Below, piece by piece: positions 2,094 to 6,604 of a DNA stretch of 6,604 nt (positions are counted from its first letter, which is position 1; each line of letters starts with the position of its first letter). The notes below the pieces were generated by a model. That model did no database searches, was not told the DNA's origin, and saw only the letters and a list, made by a program, of their open reading frames with translations. The stretch lies in the IMG/VR virus record IMGVR_UViG_2917849834_000003. One strand, written 5' to 3'. Position numbers and translations under genes: made by a program. Source of the DNA: a virus (taxonomy: Duplodnaviria; Heunggongvirae; Uroviricota; Caudoviricetes).

Positions 2094-2393
2094 TTATTCG
2101 ATGCGTACTCCTGGTATTTCGCCTTTTGATATTGCTAAGTCATAAATTTGCGCGGCACTATACCCATCTCGCATCCATGAATCCAAGGCGCGAACAGCCT
2201 CGCTACGCTTTTTATCTTCTCTCTCATTTTTGATATCAACGAGGACATCAACGCAATTAAGGCAAATGTGGATTTTGTCCTTACATTCGATCATGGCGGC
2301 TTTACCATGATTTCCGCCACACAGTGAGCATAAATCTTCAGGGTCCGGCTGGTATTTCTGTAACGTTAGATGGTTGAATGTTGAACAGACCAT
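2094..2393 (-). CDS. Hypothetical small Cys-rich protein (CxxC...CxxC, possible zinc ribbon)
   Basis: ORF with three in-frame ATGs; the one at 2393..2391 has GGAG with 6-nt spacing. Two CxxC pairs (CSLCGG and CLNC) suggest a zinc-binding fold. No family recognised. Confidence 0.55.
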   Translation of the reverse strand: MVCSTFNHLTLQKYQPDPEDLCSLCGGNHGKAAMIECKDKIHICLNCVDVLVDIKNEREDKKRSEAVRALDSWMRDGYSAAQIYDLAISKGEIPGVRIE

Positions 2394-2403
2394 AATCATC
2401 TCC

Positions 2404-2430
2404 ATAAAACAAAACTCGCCGTAGCGAGTT
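2404..2430 (-). terminator. Putative rho-independent terminator after the 142-aa gene
   Basis: Plus-strand AACTCGC-CGTA-GCGAGTT (2413..2430): on the minus-strand RNA a 7-bp stem and 4-nt loop followed by UUGUUUUAU. It lies between the stop at 2476 and the next gene. Confidence 0.5.
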
Positions 2431-2475
2431 CAGATATAATTTCCACCAAAGGCAGTAGTTGCTTGATGCTAAGAA

Positions 2476-2904
2476 TTATTTAATATCTATTCCTGTAATA
2501 TCTTTTATCTTTTTCCTTGCCAAGCCTTTTGCTAGTGATTTTGAAACACTCATAAGTGTACTAATTCCCTCATCCTTAAAGTTTGTTTTTATAGCTTGCC
2601 AGACATCCTTTTGACGTAAGTCAGCAATAAAATCATGCCCTCTTGCTGTCAACCTTAGTGGTACTTCGATCCAACTATATCCAACACCTTCCCCTAACGC
2701 TTTGGACATTATATGACCGAACCCAGGTTTTCCATCAACCCTGACTATTAATTCGTAGTCACATAATAATCGCATATGGAAAATAAAATTTTGGTCATAT
2801 CTATTAAAGCCATTATCCTCTAGTTCACTAAGCATCGTGTCAGGGCCATGAGTTTTTTCGAATGCGATAAGTAGATCTTTTAGATATTGCTGGTCTAATT
2901 TCAT
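2476..2904 (-). CDS. Hypothetical protein, AT-rich moron-like gene (142 aa)
   Basis: ATG at 2904..2902 with GGAGG at 5-nt spacing. Composition is visibly much more AT-rich than the flanking genes. It has its own downstream terminator and a candidate -10 (TATAAAT at about 2931..2938 on the minus strand) plus a palindrome upstream. I faintly recall a phage DUF family with this N-terminal pattern but cannot confirm it. Confidence 0.6.
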   Translation of the reverse strand: MKLDQQYLKDLLIAFEKTHGPDTMLSELEDNGFNRYDQNFIFHMRLLCDYELIVRVDGKPGFGHIMSKALGEGVGYSWIEVPLRLTARGHDFIADLRQKDVWQAIKTNFKDEGISTLMSVSKSLAKGLARKKIKDITGIDIK

Positions 2905-2914
2905 TGCCGCCTCC

Positions 2915-2926
2915 GTGACATGTCAC
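2915..2926. promoter_or_regulatory. Perfect 12-bp palindrome GTGACATGTCAC, candidate operator between a putative -10 and the RBS of the 142-aa gene
   Basis: Exact dyad symmetry read directly from the sequence, located in the 28-bp gap between the 112-aa gene stop and the 142-aa gene start. Confidence 0.3.
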
Positions 2927-2932
2927 AGAGAT

Positions 2933-3271
2933 TTATATCATTAATGTTGTTTCGTGCCAGCCTTTGGTCACCCAGCATTGTGAGTCACCATTACACGGGC
3001 ATGAATTAACAGGAACTCTCTCGCCGCACTTACCGCAACGTTTTCTGCTGATCGATTTTATACGCCAGCGCACACGTGCATCATCCTGGCGGCTCAGTAA
3101 CGCGATGTACTCACCAAACTCGTAAGGCGCACGCCTGAAGCGACGCGTGGCACAGTCACGCTCCAGCATTTCAATTTCCTGAGCATCAAGTACAAGCTCC
3201 AGCTTACGCATACCGGATGATGCTTGCTTGGCTCTCTGATCGGCTTTGCGCTCTGCTGCTGATTTAGCCAT
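2933..3271 (-). CDS. Hypothetical small protein with a possible N-terminal ribbon-helix-helix-like segment and a C-terminal Cys cluster (CGKCG...CPC)
   Basis: ATG at 3271..3269 with AGGAAA upstream. KLELVLDAQEIEMLERD looks like a beta-strand plus helix of an RHH-type DNA-binding motif (inference). The C-terminal CxxC...CxC suggests a zinc ribbon. The overlapping ORF 3094..3423 in another frame starts with TTG and is rejected. Confidence 0.5.
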   Translation of the reverse strand: MAKSAAERKADQRAKQASSGMRKLELVLDAQEIEMLERDCATRRFRRAPYEFGEYIALLSRQDDARVRWRIKSISRKRCGKCGERVPVNSCPCNGDSQCWVTKGWHETTLMI

Positions 3272-3443
3272 TCTGCTTTTCCTGCATCAGGAGAAAGACA
3301 ATCATGGCGGCGCGGATGCTTCCGGTATCTCTTTATGCGATATTCCTCCTCTATAGCACATACAAGCAGCGAACCATCAACTGGAGTGAGTGAGGAATCG
3401 ACCACAAGCAACGCCCCTTGCAATATGCCTTCGCGGTAATGGC

Positions 3444-3534
3444 TGTCACCCGCGGAACAATTTATCTGCTGGCTGTATGAAAAGCCAGCAATACAACTTT
3501 TGCTGACTTTCCACCGTTAACGCGACACAACCTT
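3444..3534. repeat. Left arm of a long imperfect inverted repeat flanking the 233-aa gene cassette
   Basis: 3501..3534 is the exact reverse complement of 4488..4521 (34 bp). 3444..3471 matches the reverse complement of 4518..4545 with one mismatch and one 1-nt indel. The left arm carries about 31 extra bp (3472..3500) between the two blocks. Confidence 0.8.
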
Positions 3535-3619
3535 TGTTCCTGAGCTTCGCGTTGCAGAGCCGGTAATCTCCGTCTCTTTAAATTAAAAAGACGGAGACTA
3601 TTAAAAACTCATTAAAACA

Positions 3620-4321
3620 TCAGGAAACAACAGATTCCCCGTAAAACGCTACAGCCTGTGCAGGCTGGGAGTCCATATCATCATGGAGATCTCTGGAGTA
3701 TGGGAGGGAGTTGACTGTCGATATAAATATCCTGTCATTTTCTAAAGTGAAAATTTCTGATTTGAGACTACCAATATCACTATGTACAGGATTAGTCCAC
3801 CCACTAAATAGTAAAAATCCCCATTCCTGAAAAAGCCCGGAATTCACTTCACGTTTTACATCATGAAACATTTCTCCCGTCAGTTCATCGAAATGGACAT
3901 TATTGATATCGCGTCGTGCCGGGACAGTCCCTTTTTTATCCTCAATCCAAAACCATGCATTGTCAAATCTGTCCGACGTTGCGGTACGAGGTTTAAAGAA
4001 GCGATGAGGTTTAATTAAATAAGATGACACAAATTTCCCTGTGGCTTTATCCTTCGCAAAAATAACAAATGTTTTACCAATGCAGCTTTCATCAATATCT
4101 TTTGAAAATGACACCACGCCGTCCTGATTTACAGTCAGCGAATTGTCTCCCGCATTGGTGGCAACACTCCAGTCCAACGTATTATTATTGACAACATCAT
4201 TGTCAACCACCATCTGAAATGTCGCACCTGGAAATAATGTTTTCGGGAATGAACCATTAGCCATGTCTTCTTTTATATCGAAAACATGGTGGCTCACTAG
4301 AACACCGGTAATTTTTGGCAT
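3620..4321 (-). CDS. Hypothetical orphan protein (233 aa), AT-rich moron flanked by inverted repeats
   Basis: ATG at 4321..4319 preceded by AAGGAG with 6-nt spacing. AT-rich composition. No signal peptide or catalytic motif recognised. The N-terminal ~90 aa has an alternating beta-strand-like pattern (FQMVVDNDVV...LTVNQDGVVSF...FVIFAKD) that could be an Ig-like beta-sandwich, which is inference only. Confidence 0.65.
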   Translation of the reverse strand: MPKITGVLVSHHVFDIKEDMANGSFPKTLFPGATFQMVVDNDVVNNNTLDWSVATNAGDNSLTVNQDGVVSFSKDIDESCIGKTFVIFAKDKATGKFVSSYLIKPHRFFKPRTATSDRFDNAWFWIEDKKGTVPARRDINNVHFDELTGEMFHDVKREVNSGLFQEWGFLLFSGWTNPVHSDIGSLKSEIFTLENDRIFISTVNSLPYSRDLHDDMDSQPAQAVAFYGESVVS

Positions 4322-4487
4322 AAAAAACTCCTTATTTGTTTAATTGAAATGCGATCAATAAATTCGATCGCCAGAGAGATATTATTACTTTTACAAGAAT
4401 AAATGTTGTTATTTGTTTATTATAAAACAATCATCACCCAGAAAAGAAAAAGATGCAGCTCGTTAACAAAAACCTTTGTGGCATATT
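4322..4487 (-). promoter_or_regulatory. AT-rich upstream region of the 233-aa gene with a candidate sigma70 -10 (TATAAT on the minus strand at about 4424..4419)
   Basis: Very AT-rich 160-bp stretch. A perfect TATAAT hexamer sits on the minus strand about 100 nt upstream of the start codon. The -35 is poor, so the promoter call is weak. Confidence 0.3.
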
Positions 4488-4545
4488 AAGGTTGTGTCGC
4501 GTTAACGGTGGAAAGTCAGCAGATAAAATTGTTCCGTGGGTGACA
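4488..4545. repeat. Right arm of the inverted repeat flanking the 233-aa gene cassette
   Basis: Reverse complement of 3444..3471 plus 3501..3534 (see left arm). The arms sit about 950 bp apart and enclose the 233-aa gene and its promoter region. Confidence 0.8.
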
Positions 4546-4593: not shown

Positions 4594-4804
4594 TTAATTC
4601 AACGCCGGCCAGTATCGTAGCCGTTCCATGAAATAGGTGTGCAAGTTCTCCGGTTGCTCACGGGCTACCTGTTCTGCAATTACCGGTATATTCATCCGCT
4701 CTTTGTAGGCAACGCCGCTGGCGGCCAGGTCAGCGTGATAATTCAGATTCGTGCGGGTAGAAAGCGGACATGACGCCGCTACCCGCGAGCTGAAAGTGCA
4801 TCAT
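4594..4804 (-). pseudogene. Probable frameshift-disrupted small gene (about 70 codons if restored)
   Basis: The minus strand reads AAGGAG-TTACCC-ATGATG (a perfect SD with 6-nt spacing), then an ORF of only 24 codons ([24 protein letters not shown]). A second frame is open across the same region and continues to a stop at 4596..4594 (..[48 protein letters not shown]). The span is 211 nt, which is 3n+1, and the region is GC-rich and coding-like. Confidence 0.35.
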
Positions 4805-4887
4805 GGGTAACTCCTTATATTTGATTGCATAACGAAAATGCCTCTCGTGAAGCATTATTGGTATGCGGTAAAGCCGCGCTCAGGCGG

Positions 4888-5136
4888 CTACTCTATTTCT
4901 TCTTCGAATGATTTTATTAGTCGGTCAATAACATCATCTGTTTCAATATCATTTCCGTCCGATTGCTTTAATACGTCTATTGATTCTGCTGCGGTAAATT
5001 CCATCGCTGTGAGAAACTCGACAATTGCACACTCAACGACATATCGTTCTTCATCTGTACGACATGAGATAAAAGAGCATTTAATTGCTGTTATTACTTT
5101 TTGTTTAAGCTCTGCAGGATAATCAGTTTTTATCAT
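4888..5136 (-). CDS. Hypothetical small acidic protein (82 aa)
   Basis: ATG at 5136..5134 with GGAG at 6-nt spacing. The product is strongly acidic, especially the C-terminus (DGNDIETDDVIDRLIKSFEEEIE). A GC hairpin overlaps the stop codon (4873..4888). No family recognised. Confidence 0.55.
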   Translation of the reverse strand: MIKTDYPAELKQKVITAIKCSFISCRTDEERYVVECAIVEFLTAMEFTAAESIDVLKQSDGNDIETDDVIDRLIKSFEEEIE

Positions 5137-5149
5137 CGTTCACTCCGTC

Positions 5150-5178
5150 AAAAAAATTGCCCTCACATTGGAGGGCAA
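5150..5178 (-). terminator. Rho-independent terminator (8-bp stem, 6-nt loop, U7 tract on the minus-strand transcript)
   Basis: Plus-strand AAAAAAA-TTGCCCTC-ACATTG-GAGGGCAA: on the minus-strand RNA the hairpin is followed directly by UUUUUUU. It lies between the IS end and the 82-aa gene, immediately upstream of that gene's RBS. Confidence 0.6.
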
Positions 5179-5316
5179 AGAAGATTTCCAATAATCAGAA
5201 CAAGTCGGCTCCTGTTTAGTTACGAGCGACATTGCTCCGTGTATGCACTCGTTGGAATGAATACACAGTGCAGTGTTTATTCTGTTGTTTGCGTGAAAAT
5301 GAAACCCGCTAAAGCG

Positions 5317-5339: not shown

Positions 5340-5410
5340 GGGTAAAAAAAGACAGGCATAGAGTTTTGTGATCTACTGATTTGTGCAACCAATTCAATGA
5401 GATCACTTCT

Positions 5411-6604
5411 ATGCCTGCTCGACAAGTATGCCAGAATTTTTTCCACGATGCGTTAGCACCGTTTCACAAATACCGACAAAATGCTTTGCTGGATGCCACC
5501 ATCGCTCTCATCAATGGCGCATCACTGACGCTGACCAGCATCGGGCGTTATTTACCCGGCCCGGCTCAGGTCAAAAATAAAATCAAACGCGTTGACCGAC
5601 TGCTCGGTAATGAATCTCTTCACCGCGATATCCCACTGATTTTCAGTAATATTATTGCCATGCTGACTAACCAGCTATCTCTTTGTGTCATCGCCGTTGA
5701 CTGGAGTGGATATCCATCTCAGGAGCATCATGTGCTCCGCGCCAGCCTGCTCTGCGATGGACGCTCGCTTCCCCTGTTAAGCTTGATAGTCCCGTCAGAA
5801 AAACAGCAGAACTCGCAGATACAAAAAAACTTCCTGGATGCTCTTGCCGAGGCTGTAAACCCTGTGGCCAGAGTCATAATAGTTACCGATGCGGGTTTCC
5901 AGAGTGCATGGTTCCGGCATATAAGGTCACTCGGATGGGATTTTATCGGTCGCGTCAGGGGAAATATCCAGATGCGGCTGGACAGCAAAGGTGAGTGCTG
6001 GTTCAGGCGTCAGGAGTTACAGGCCAGAAGCAAACCAGAATATCTGGGGACGGGTACATTTGCCCGTTCGGAATATGCCCGGTGTGATGGCCATTTTTAT
6101 TTGCATAAAAAAGAGCTGAAAGGCCGGAAGAATCGCCGTTCACGTTGCCGCATAGAGCGTAAATCCCAAATAAAGGATGGCCGTTCTTCGGCAAAAGAAC
6201 CGTGGCTTATCTTTAGCAGTACAAATGACTTTAAACCCCGGGAAATCATGAGATTGTACAGCCGTCGCATGCAAATCGAGCAGAACTTCCGGGATGAAAA
6301 AAGCGAGCGCTTCGGGTTCGCTCTGCGTGCCAGTTACAGTCGTTCCGTGGGAAGAATGCTGGTACTGAGCCTACTGGCGACGCTGAGTACAATTGTACTG
6401 TGGCTTATTGGCTATCATGCTGAAAACAAAGGATTACATCTGAGATATCAGGCCAACAGCATTAAAACACGGCGGGTAATCTCGTATCTGACATTAGCGG
6501 AGAATGTCTTACGACACTCCCCGCTAATTTTAAGGCGAACAGTGCTGAGCACGGTTCTTAATCATCTCGCCAAAACCTACCAGAATATGGTGTTGGTTTA
6601 TTAG
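5411..6604 (+). CDS. IS4-family (IS10-like) DDE transposase
   Basis: Conserved blocks align by eye to the IS10 transposase: LTLTSIGRYLP..IKRVDRLLGN, VDWSG (first Asp), VLRASLLCDGRS, IVTDAGF (second Asp), GWDFIGRVRGN, KGRKNRRS, SAKEPWLIF, YSRRMQIEQNFRDEKS (the Y-R-E-K signature with the catalytic Glu). The ORF track starts at a TTG at 5381; the first ATG at 5411 gives an N-terminal length matching IS10, so I take 5411 as the start. Confidence 0.85.
   Translation: MPARQVCQNFFHDALAPFHKYRQNALLDATIALINGASLTLTSIGRYLPGPAQVKNKIKRVDRLLGNESLHRDIPLIFSNIIAMLTNQLSLCVIAVDWSGYPSQEHHVLRASLLCDGRSLPLLSLIVPSEKQQNSQIQKNFLDALAEAVNPVARVIIVTDAGFQSAWFRHIRSLGWDFIGRVRGNIQMRLDSKGECWFRRQELQARSKPEYLGTGTFARSEYARCDGHFYLHKKELKGRKNRRSRCRIERKSQIKDGRSSAKEPWLIFSSTNDFKPREIMRLYSRRMQIEQNFRDEKSERFGFALRASYSRSVGRMLVLSLLATLSTIVLWLIGYHAENKGLHLRYQANSIKTRRVISYLTLAENVLRHSPLILRRTVLSTVLNHLAKTYQNMVLVY

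Follow-up and report, generated by a model that had tools for sequence, protein, structure and literature searches.

A DUF2513 moron slotted among resident control elements of a lambdoid prophage, beside a palindrome that follows orf112 homologues

Background

Accessory genes of lambdoid phages are commonly treated as morons, a concept that is reportedly due to Juhala and Hendrix in 2000: such genes are absent from otherwise syntenic phages, differ in composition from the backbone genes between which they lie, and are preceded by a promoter-like element and followed by a terminator. Further systems to which the locus described here can be compared are the integron gene cassettes, the winged-helix regulators of the MarR, PadR and HxlR types, the family formed by epsilon15 gp49, phiV10 gp55 and PHROG 536, which is labelled 'transcriptional regulator', and the matS/MatP system of E. 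coli, in which the MatP site matS has the 13-bp consensus GTGAC[AG]N[TC]GTCAC (PMC6907758, PMC3603311). The present study concerns a stretch of 6,604 nucleotides (the window) from the Caudoviricetes record IMGVR_UViG_2917849834_000003 and, within it, a gene of 142 amino acids (aa) that belongs to the DUF2513 family and represents accessory (moron) cargo (2476-2904, minus strand). The window is the early-left end of a mosaic lambdoid prophage and is read on the minus strand, on which the gene, its Shine-Dalgarno (SD) sequence, a promoter-like element and a terminator are all located.

An earlier note, made from the letters of the window, had described this locus as a self-contained moron equipped with a promoter, a palindromic operator and a terminator of its own. 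All sequence features named in that note were found at the positions given there, and the comparison with related loci was used to ask how these features belong together.

Results and discussion

Anatomy and boundaries of the cassette

The region from about 2437 to 2960 (minus strand) is best read as an accessory-gene cassette with DUF2513 as cargo rather than as a closed unit. The cassette occupies a slot between the 3' end of orf112 and the palindrome GTGACATGTCAC on the upstream side and a backbone terminator on the downstream side. A putative sigma-70-type promoter, CTGGCA-17-TGaTATAAA, with the -35 hexamer in the last orf112 codons and a -10 element that includes the orf112 stop codon, travels with DUF2513 and would initiate transcription within the palindrome. 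In a repressed or defective prophage the early-operon gene orf112 would be silent, the moron promoter would be free and DUF2513 would be made alone. During lytic growth DUF2513, the final gene ahead of the terminator, would also be expressed by read-through, and an orf112 dimer on the palindrome (at about +1 to +12) would modulate or repress the moron promoter. We give this explanation as a whole, comprising a slotted cassette, an own promoter and gating by orf112, a rough probability of 0.5.

The composition of the 142-aa gene is far more AT-rich than that of its neighbours, as had been noted before. The coding sequence (CDS) has a GC content of 35.7% (28.7% at third codon positions, GC3), compared with 51.0% (GC3 48.7%) for the upstream gene orf112, which encodes 112 aa (2933-3271, minus strand), 42.9% (GC3 43.3%) for the downstream gene orf103 (2094-2405, minus strand) and 45.0% for the whole window. 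The start codon ATG (2902-2904) is preceded at a spacing of 5 nt by the SD sequence GGAGG (2910-2914, minus strand), and the motif CACGGAG of this SD region is kept in all relatives, including those in which the palindrome has decayed. The gap of 28 nt between the orf112 stop codon and the ATG contains the perfect 12-bp palindrome (2915-2926), which had correctly been placed between the -10-like TATAAAT (2931-2937) and GGAGG, and which extends to an imperfect 20-bp palindrome at 2911-2930. The minus strand upstream of the gene thus reads TGaTATAAAT-CTCT-GTGACATGTCAC-GGAGG-CGGCA-ATG.

On the downstream side, an intrinsic terminator consisting of a hairpin and a U-tract (2402-2431, minus strand) was recognised by the terminator scan, by folding and by sequence identity with the phages g341c and E212, in agreement with the earlier description; the SD sequence and the ATG of orf103 follow directly. 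The hairpin at 2412-2431 has eight pairs and a 4-nt loop and is followed in the scan by the tail TGTTTTATGG (the sequence directly after the hairpin is also given as UUUUGUUUUAU); its folding energy is -12.1 kcal/mol with a z-score of -3.7, and none of 200 shuffled sequences was as stable. Since the terminator and the next SD sequence (TTATCTGAACTCGCTACGGCGAGTTTTGTTTTATGGAGA) are identical in the P22-like phages g341c and E212, both of which lack DUF2513, the terminator is backbone DNA and not a part of the cassette. An origin from the epsilon15-type early terminator was considered and rejected: the loops are alike, but the exact match is the P22-like or lambdoid backbone. In Uetakevirus contexts, this role falls to the resident terminator of the early operon.

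The homology of the window with the DUF2513-less g341c, E212 and 720R6 stops at 2436-2439, and that with the orf112 gene of phiV10-like prophages starts at 2940, from which it follows that the cargo-specific DNA extends from about 2437 to 2939. It includes a cassette-specific 3' untranslated stretch (2437-2475, minus strand) next to the 3' mosaic junction at about 2436-2440. E. coli prophages with DUF2513 match the window from 2395 upward.

Mobility and distribution of DUF2513

Sequence comparison identifies the DUF2513 gene as a mobile, independently acquired accessory gene and, in that sense, as a moron. The independent acquisition proposed earlier is borne out by its absence from syntenic phages, by a GC content lower than that of the flanks in nearly all loci and by many unrelated genomic contexts. 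Of 5426 E. coli genomes, just 142 contain the module; about 532 genomes have orf112, which in most of them is followed by terS and not by DUF2513. The gene order orf112-palindrome-terminator-terS without DUF2513 was found in the Uetakevirus phages epsilon15, phiV10 and Tyrion, in which the comparative check suggested by the earlier note thus revealed an empty slot, and in an E. coli prophage at guaA; a tblastn search of these four genomes detected no DUF2513. The same slot is occupied by DUF2513 in Cronobacter and Pantoea prophages of identical architecture and by a different gene in BUCT554, and in the lambdoid context g341c and E212 have the downstream backbone without DUF2513.

Altogether, the contexts of DUF2513 comprise at least five in prophages and an integron cassette array. 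In addition to the orf112-terS slot, it occurs in the lambdoid early-left region, and homologues with 60-75% identity are located in lambdoid nin regions, beside an integrase in Serratia and as a lone gene in Pectobacterium (L085/86), where DUF2513 is monocistronic and flanked by genes on the opposite strand. The homologue of Rhodanobacter is one cassette in an array of attC repeats, and the Vibrio loci are similar.

Several observations were made on the more distant homologues and on the slot itself. Distant DUF2513 homologues are single-gene integron cassettes (L007, 629-2051; L013, L018, L019 and L035); the attC-like repeats of the Rhodanobacter metagenome-assembled genome (..GCCTAAC..GCGTTAGGC) have spacings of 331, 523 and 480 nt, and the Vibrio loci have flanks resembling Vibrio cholerae repeats (VCR-like). 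A second DUF2513 lineage with 45-50% identity has a different conserved block about 70 nt upstream, GGCATTCAC.G.GTG..TG.GATAATG.TA (L005, L010, L012, L014, L016, L017), which consists of an imperfect palindrome and an extended -10 element, with a strong terminator behind it; the arrangement represents a further design of self-promoted cassette. In BUCT554 (L083, 7860-8260), the slot after orf112 holds a 109-aa gene that starts with MGFPSPAKDY, a motif which we take to be UmuD-like, and is preceded by TTGACT-17-TATACT overlapping the LexA-box-like sequence TACTGTTTAAATGTACAGTA. It looks like a second, SOS-controlled moron at the orf112-terS hotspot; a UmuD-like identity of its product, although suggested by the motif and the LexA box, was not supported by Pfam, which gave no match.

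The DUF2513 protein

The homology and structure searches that had been proposed for the 142-aa protein were informative as to its family and fold. It matches Pfam DUF2513 (PF10711) with 41.9 bits (cut-off 29.6), covering profile positions 1-100 of 100, and it also matches PHROG 585. The protein combines an acidic winged-helix domain with basic helices at its C-terminus. The family comprises 1383 clusters at 50% identity according to a profile of the relatives, nearly all of them stand-alone proteins of 130-145 aa. A sequence search of the PDB returned no match, the PADLOC defence models gave nothing at an E-value of 0.01 or better for DUF2513, orf112 and the neighbouring genes, and a Foldseek structure search against BFVD returned uncharacterised proteins only. 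Among the papers searched, none mentions DUF2513 or the 12-mer, and the paper on the Uetakevirus ZX5 concerns other proteins.

The protein has the winged helix-turn-helix fold of MarR- and PadR-type repressors. In most members, however, the isoelectric point (pI) is 4.6-6.5 for the whole protein and 4.3-5.5 for the winged-helix domain, and because of this acidity DUF2513 is a poor candidate for binding the palindrome and fits poorly with a typical operator-binding repressor. It is more likely that the product binds a partner, either protein or nucleic acid, in phage-host or phage-phage conflict than that it is a classical operator-binding repressor.

A palindrome associated with orf112

Seen within the window, the palindrome is not exceptional, as two perfect 12-bp palindromes were observed against 1.6 expected, and its significance derives from comparative data only. 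The motif GTGAC-NN-GTCAC, or a version with one mismatch, lies within 10 nt of the stop codon of every orf112 homologue with at least 40% identity, with or without DUF2513; it was not found at homologues with 30-34% identity in Vibrio and Aeromonas phages. In loci lacking DUF2513, the palindrome overlaps the orf112 stop codon (..GTG TGA CATGTCAC). Exact copies number three per genome in epsilon15, Tyrion and the E. coli Uetakevirus prophage, where 0.003 are expected per 49 kb, and phiV10 and BUCT554 have two exact copies each and one copy with a single mismatch. In the Uetakevirus genomes, each copy is situated a few bases from a stop codon, beside an intrinsic terminator and at the border of a variable accessory region. 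The triplicate sites of Uetakevirus phages and of the phage ZF40 are those at L079, 29115/31380/48664; L081, 2142/19517/39612; L082, 2702/20377/41755; and L099, 5125/7622/14944.

The association is also seen in other phage groups. In the Pectobacterium phage ZF40, gp22 is 61% identical to orf112 and is followed by TGTGACATGTCACA; of the three exact copies in this phage two flank cI/cro and lie inside coding sequence. A P2-like Yersinia phage encodes an orf112 homologue with 40% identity, the gene of which ends inside TTGTGACGCGTCACAA with the site GTGACGCGTCAC, where half-sites and spacing are unchanged and the centre is GC. In 934 kb of loci, 33 exact copies are found in loci with orf112, and three further copies in loci without a full orf112 all adjoin DUF2513, near an orf112 remnant or a truncated upstream sequence; no copy was detected elsewhere in the 934 kb (0.06 expected), and the window itself contains only one GTGACATGTCAC. 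A description of the palindrome was not found in annotations of epsilon15 and phiV10 or in the papers searched.

The palindrome is therefore a resident, orf112-tied site that occurs without DUF2513, overlaps the orf112 stop codon and is present in about three copies per genome, and it is not a dedicated moron operator. This bears on the view that the locus is a closed moron with promoter, operator and terminator of its own, in which the palindrome would serve a dedicated dimeric regulator, for instance in autoregulation by DUF2513. Such a model would explain the exact position of the palindrome between the -10-like element and the SD sequence, the resemblance of the DUF2513 fold to MarR and PadR repressors and the retention of the palindrome with DUF2513 where orf112 was lost. 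It conflicts with the presence of the palindrome, often threefold, in phages devoid of DUF2513, with its loss upstream of DUF2513 homologues at 56% identity or less, with the acidic winged-helix domain and with the backbone nature of the terminator. The closed-moron model is largely refuted by these comparative sequence data, and we consider it very improbable. The claim of a self-contained unit was accordingly abandoned, as the terminator belongs to the backbone, the -35 hexamer is encoded in orf112 codons and the palindrome is tied to orf112.

Two other assignments were examined and dismissed. A role as phage genome end (cos or pac) had been considered as the phiV10 record starts inside the palindrome; this start is by convention after the gp55 stop codon, and other records start at terS. 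The palindrome is also distinct from the annotated repressor operators of epsilon15, which read ATTACC-N4/5-GGTAAT. Cronobacter prophages and BUCT554 (L073-L078 and L083) possess an operator of this type, ATTACC-N5-GGTAAT, which follows DUF2513 or the slot gene and immediately precedes terS; the repressor therefore seems to control the late operon of these phages directly, in line with the epsilon15 annotation.

Since the palindrome follows orf112 homologues regardless of DUF2513, the orf112 product is the best candidate for a binder. It is a member of the epsilon15 gp49, phiV10 gp55 and phrog_536 family (E-value of 1.5e-49 with phrog_536 over residues 1-111; 71-88% identity to gp49 and gp55) and is basic with a pI of 9.5. 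The protein has a basic helix at its N-terminus, possibly a ribbon-helix-helix, and a Cys-rich zinc ribbon at its C-terminus; the residues C40, C79, C82, C93, W100, W105 and H106 are invariant. Judged from these sequence relationships, the palindrome is most likely a binding site of the basic orf112 protein and not an operator of DUF2513. The earlier suggestion of control by a dimeric DNA-binding protein is thus reasonable in principle, with orf112 as the preferred candidate, but not in the form of an operator dedicated to the moron.

Three further explanations assign the palindrome to other molecules or processes. The first holds that it acts as RNA, either as an SD-sequestering hairpin that controls translation or as a boxB-like hairpin to which the arginine-rich N-terminal part of orf112 would bind. 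The minus-strand RNA of the window can indeed form a 9-pair stem that includes GGAGG (-10.8 kcal/mol, z-score -2.8), with one U-G pair where the other strand would have a C-A mismatch. In four relatives, however, the folding is no better than that of shuffled sequences (z-scores +0.5, -1.2, +0.2 and +0.6), all 12 positions including the 'loop' are conserved, the variants GCGACATGTCAC, GTGACATCTCAC and ATGACATGTCAC represent single, uncompensated changes, and a transcript derived from the promoter would begin inside the 5' arm. We attach very little likelihood to this explanation.

The second explanation, a host-factor site, draws on the half-sites GTGAC and GTCAC, which are identical to those of matS (PMC6907758, PMC3603311), and on the fact that all hosts are Enterobacterales. 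Against it, the spacer has 2 nt instead of 3 (12 bp versus 13 bp), neither the window nor the phage genomes contain a 13-bp matS, prophages avoid matS (PMC3603311), and the site co-occurs strictly with orf112, unlike what is expected of a host site; the host-factor explanation is therefore highly improbable. A relationship to MatP was also tried and rejected, as hhalign comparisons of orf112 and DUF2513 with E. coli MatP gave a probability below 1%.

According to the third explanation, the palindrome is a module-boundary or recombination 'linker' for the exchange of accessory genes and has no regulatory role for DUF2513. All three Uetakevirus copies adjoin variable accessory regions, and the loci L064 and L065 are identical on one side of a copy and different on the other, as such a linker would predict. 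On the other hand, 12 bp are short for homologous exchange, two of the ZF40 copies lie inside coding regions, and the strictness with which the site is conserved between genera points to protein recognition, which renders a pure linker improbable.

A putative promoter that travels with DUF2513

The extended -10-like element TGaTATAAA (2932-2940, minus strand) includes the orf112 stop codon TAA (2933-2935), and the -35-like hexamer CTGGCA (2955-2960, minus strand) is located 17 nt upstream of TATAAA within the last orf112 codons (GWHE). The best -35 hexamer hence falls inside orf112 and outside the interval 2404-2940 that had been delimited as the moron. In the DUF2513 loci of this clade, an extra 8-10 nt are present between the last orf112 codons and the palindrome that are absent where orf112 occurs by itself. 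This block creates TATAAA, TATAAT or TATAGT at a distance of 17 nt downstream of (C/G/A)TGGCA. A preceding TGn is found where the -10 hexamer is TATAAA (window, L003, L067, L073, L085), and no TG is present where the hexamer ends in T. The orthologous CTGGCA-17-TATAAT or TATAGT was called as a promoter in L089 (10 of 12 matches), L087 and L070.

Loci that have lost the remainder of orf112 (L003, L067, L070, L085) still keep the -35 hexamer CTGGCA together with DUF2513. In such loci, the homology starts just upstream of the -35 hexamer (L003, L070), about 10 nt upstream of it (L085, in which there is no upstream gene able to supply transcription) or further upstream (L067, in which TGaTATAAA is kept despite the loss of the orf112 reading frame). 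These patterns make a weak extended -10 promoter of DUF2513 itself probable. Transcription starting about 7 nt past the -10 element would begin within the left palindrome arm; the palindrome would then cover about +1 to +12, and a protein bound there would hold a classical operator position. We infer from this arrangement that expression from an own promoter gated by orf112 is plausible.

The principal alternative is that DUF2513 has no own promoter and is expressed by read-through only, as the last gene of the orf112 operon, with the upstream conservation reflecting hitch-hiking orf112 codons and the orf112 site. The gap of 28 nt after orf112 and the strong SD sequence are compatible with it, as are the overlap of the -35 and -10 elements with orf112 codons and stop, the missing promoter call in the window and the location of DUF2513 upstream of the early-operon terminator in Uetakevirus contexts. 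Read-through does not account for Pectobacterium L085/86, where the neighbours are on the opposite strand and the same -35/-10 block is nevertheless present, nor for the retention of TGaTATAAA in L067 without the orf112 reading frame; the alternation of TGn with a final T and the DUF2513-specific block of 8-10 nt likewise fit a promoter. We regard exclusive read-through as rather unlikely, and the promoter postulated by the earlier note as plausible on account of the orthologous calls in L089, L087 and L070, even though it was not called in the window and its -35 hexamer lies outside the interval described.

Several findings weigh against a slotted cassette with its own promoter and gating by orf112. 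A scan of the window for consensus sigma-70 promoters calls nothing at TATAAA, which is due to the missing final T in this -10 hexamer, and the conservation upstream of DUF2513 could, as far as sequence can tell, be that of hitch-hiking orf112 codons and not the result of selection for a promoter. The three Uetakevirus palindromes are situated at operon ends beside terminators and not at promoters, from which it follows that the native role of the palindrome may not be operator-like. Loci without an intact orf112 still keep the palindrome, some of them with one mismatch. Finally, the AlphaFold2 model of orf112 is poor, with a predicted local distance difference test (pLDDT) value of 56, and too poor for a fold search; orf112 has no meaningful Pfam match (E-values up to 5) or PDB sequence match (E-values up to 10), and we infer its DNA binding solely from its charge, its cysteines and its PHROG label.

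Other features of the window

Downstream of the cassette on the minus strand, the window encodes orf123 (1672-2043), xis (1351-1644) and int (1-1305) in addition to orf103. Immediately before the likely start of xis, the longest xis open reading frame (ORF) contains a G9 homopolymer at 1622-1630 (C9 on the coding strand, encoding PPP), which may be prone to slippage or may have arisen in assembly.

Directly upstream of orf112, a remnant of a Peptidase_S24 domain (UmuD/LexA-like) was recognised at about 3300-3423 (minus strand) with a Pfam E-value of 0.012, which is under the cut-off. The corresponding UmuD-like ORF (3094-3423, minus strand) extends out of frame into orf112. In phage Chlobot, a CDS for a 'UmuD-like protein' is annotated over an intact orf112 in a different frame.

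A perfect 34-bp inverted repeat (3501-3534 and 4488-4521), with further 20-nt arms that are 95% complementary (3444-3534 and 4488-4545), encloses a 953-bp AT-rich segment (about 3501-4521 with the repeats); the product of its gene (3620-4321, minus strand) has 233 aa and includes an Invasin_D4-like domain. Megablast yielded no match to this segment among the 5426 complete E. coli genomes; the segment may represent cargo that was inserted or that can be inverted.

A cIII remnant (4730-4855, minus strand; phage records annotate cIII across 4730-5290) and ral (4888-5136, minus strand) follow. Just past these genes, an IS4-family transposase gene (DDE_Tnp_1; 5381-6604, plus strand) sits at the place expected for N and pL, which suggests a disruption of the early-left promoter region; the prophage carrying the window is probably defective. 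None of the complete E. coli genomes reached a coverage of 80% of the window, and an Rfam covariance-model search of the whole window gave no match at an E-value of 1 or better.

Comparison with known systems

The moron itself is ordinary in kind, and the pairing of the palindrome with orf112 appears undescribed. The value of the former is that of a well-delimited case in which accessory genes are slotted among resident control elements instead of forming closed promoter-gene-terminator units. The small, acidic winged-helix proteins of the DUF2513 family, which form about 1400 clusters at 50% identity, recur in prophage accessory slots and integron cassettes, a distribution typical of conflict or lysogenic-conversion genes. 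The association of orf112 with the palindrome is the more useful by-product, as it provides a testable hypothesis for a family annotated as 'transcriptional regulator' without evidence. Quite tentatively, and with the odds against it, GTGAC-N2-GTCAC and the gp49/orf112-family protein may constitute an undescribed phage regulatory pair of Uetakevirus, ZF40-like and some P2-like phages that acts at operon ends and module boundaries and gates accessory cargo, such as DUF2513, inserted beside its sites. If true, the pair might function, for example, as an insulator, in terminator-associated control or as a matS-like mimic.

With the lambdoid morons, DUF2513 shares the status of an extra gene of atypical composition between backbone genes, its absence from otherwise syntenic phages, and its position behind a promoter-like element and ahead of a terminator. 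In contrast to them, its terminator and palindrome are backbone elements and its -35 and -10 elements overlap the neighbouring gene, and the unit is therefore not autonomous. The distant homologues of DUF2513 are integron gene cassettes, that is single genes between attC-like repeats as in the Rhodanobacter array, whereas the window copy lies within a prophage and lacks attC sites. The fold of the MarR and PadR repressors is similar to that of DUF2513, but there is no membership in a sequence family of the MarR, PadR or HxlR regulators and no Pfam match to MarR or PadR, most members are acidic, and no conserved operator accompanies the DUF2513 family as a whole. The palindrome shares with matS of E. 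coli the 5-bp half-sites and their palindromic arrangement, but it measures 12 bp instead of 13 and follows a phage gene, not the Ter macrodomain. The product of orf112 is a clear member of the family of epsilon15 gp49, phiV10 gp55 and PHROG 536, and the same palindrome follows the gene; it differs from the other members in its location in a lambdoid early-left region, where it is not the last early gene before terS, and in the single palindrome copy of the window, the functional label of the family being one of annotation only.

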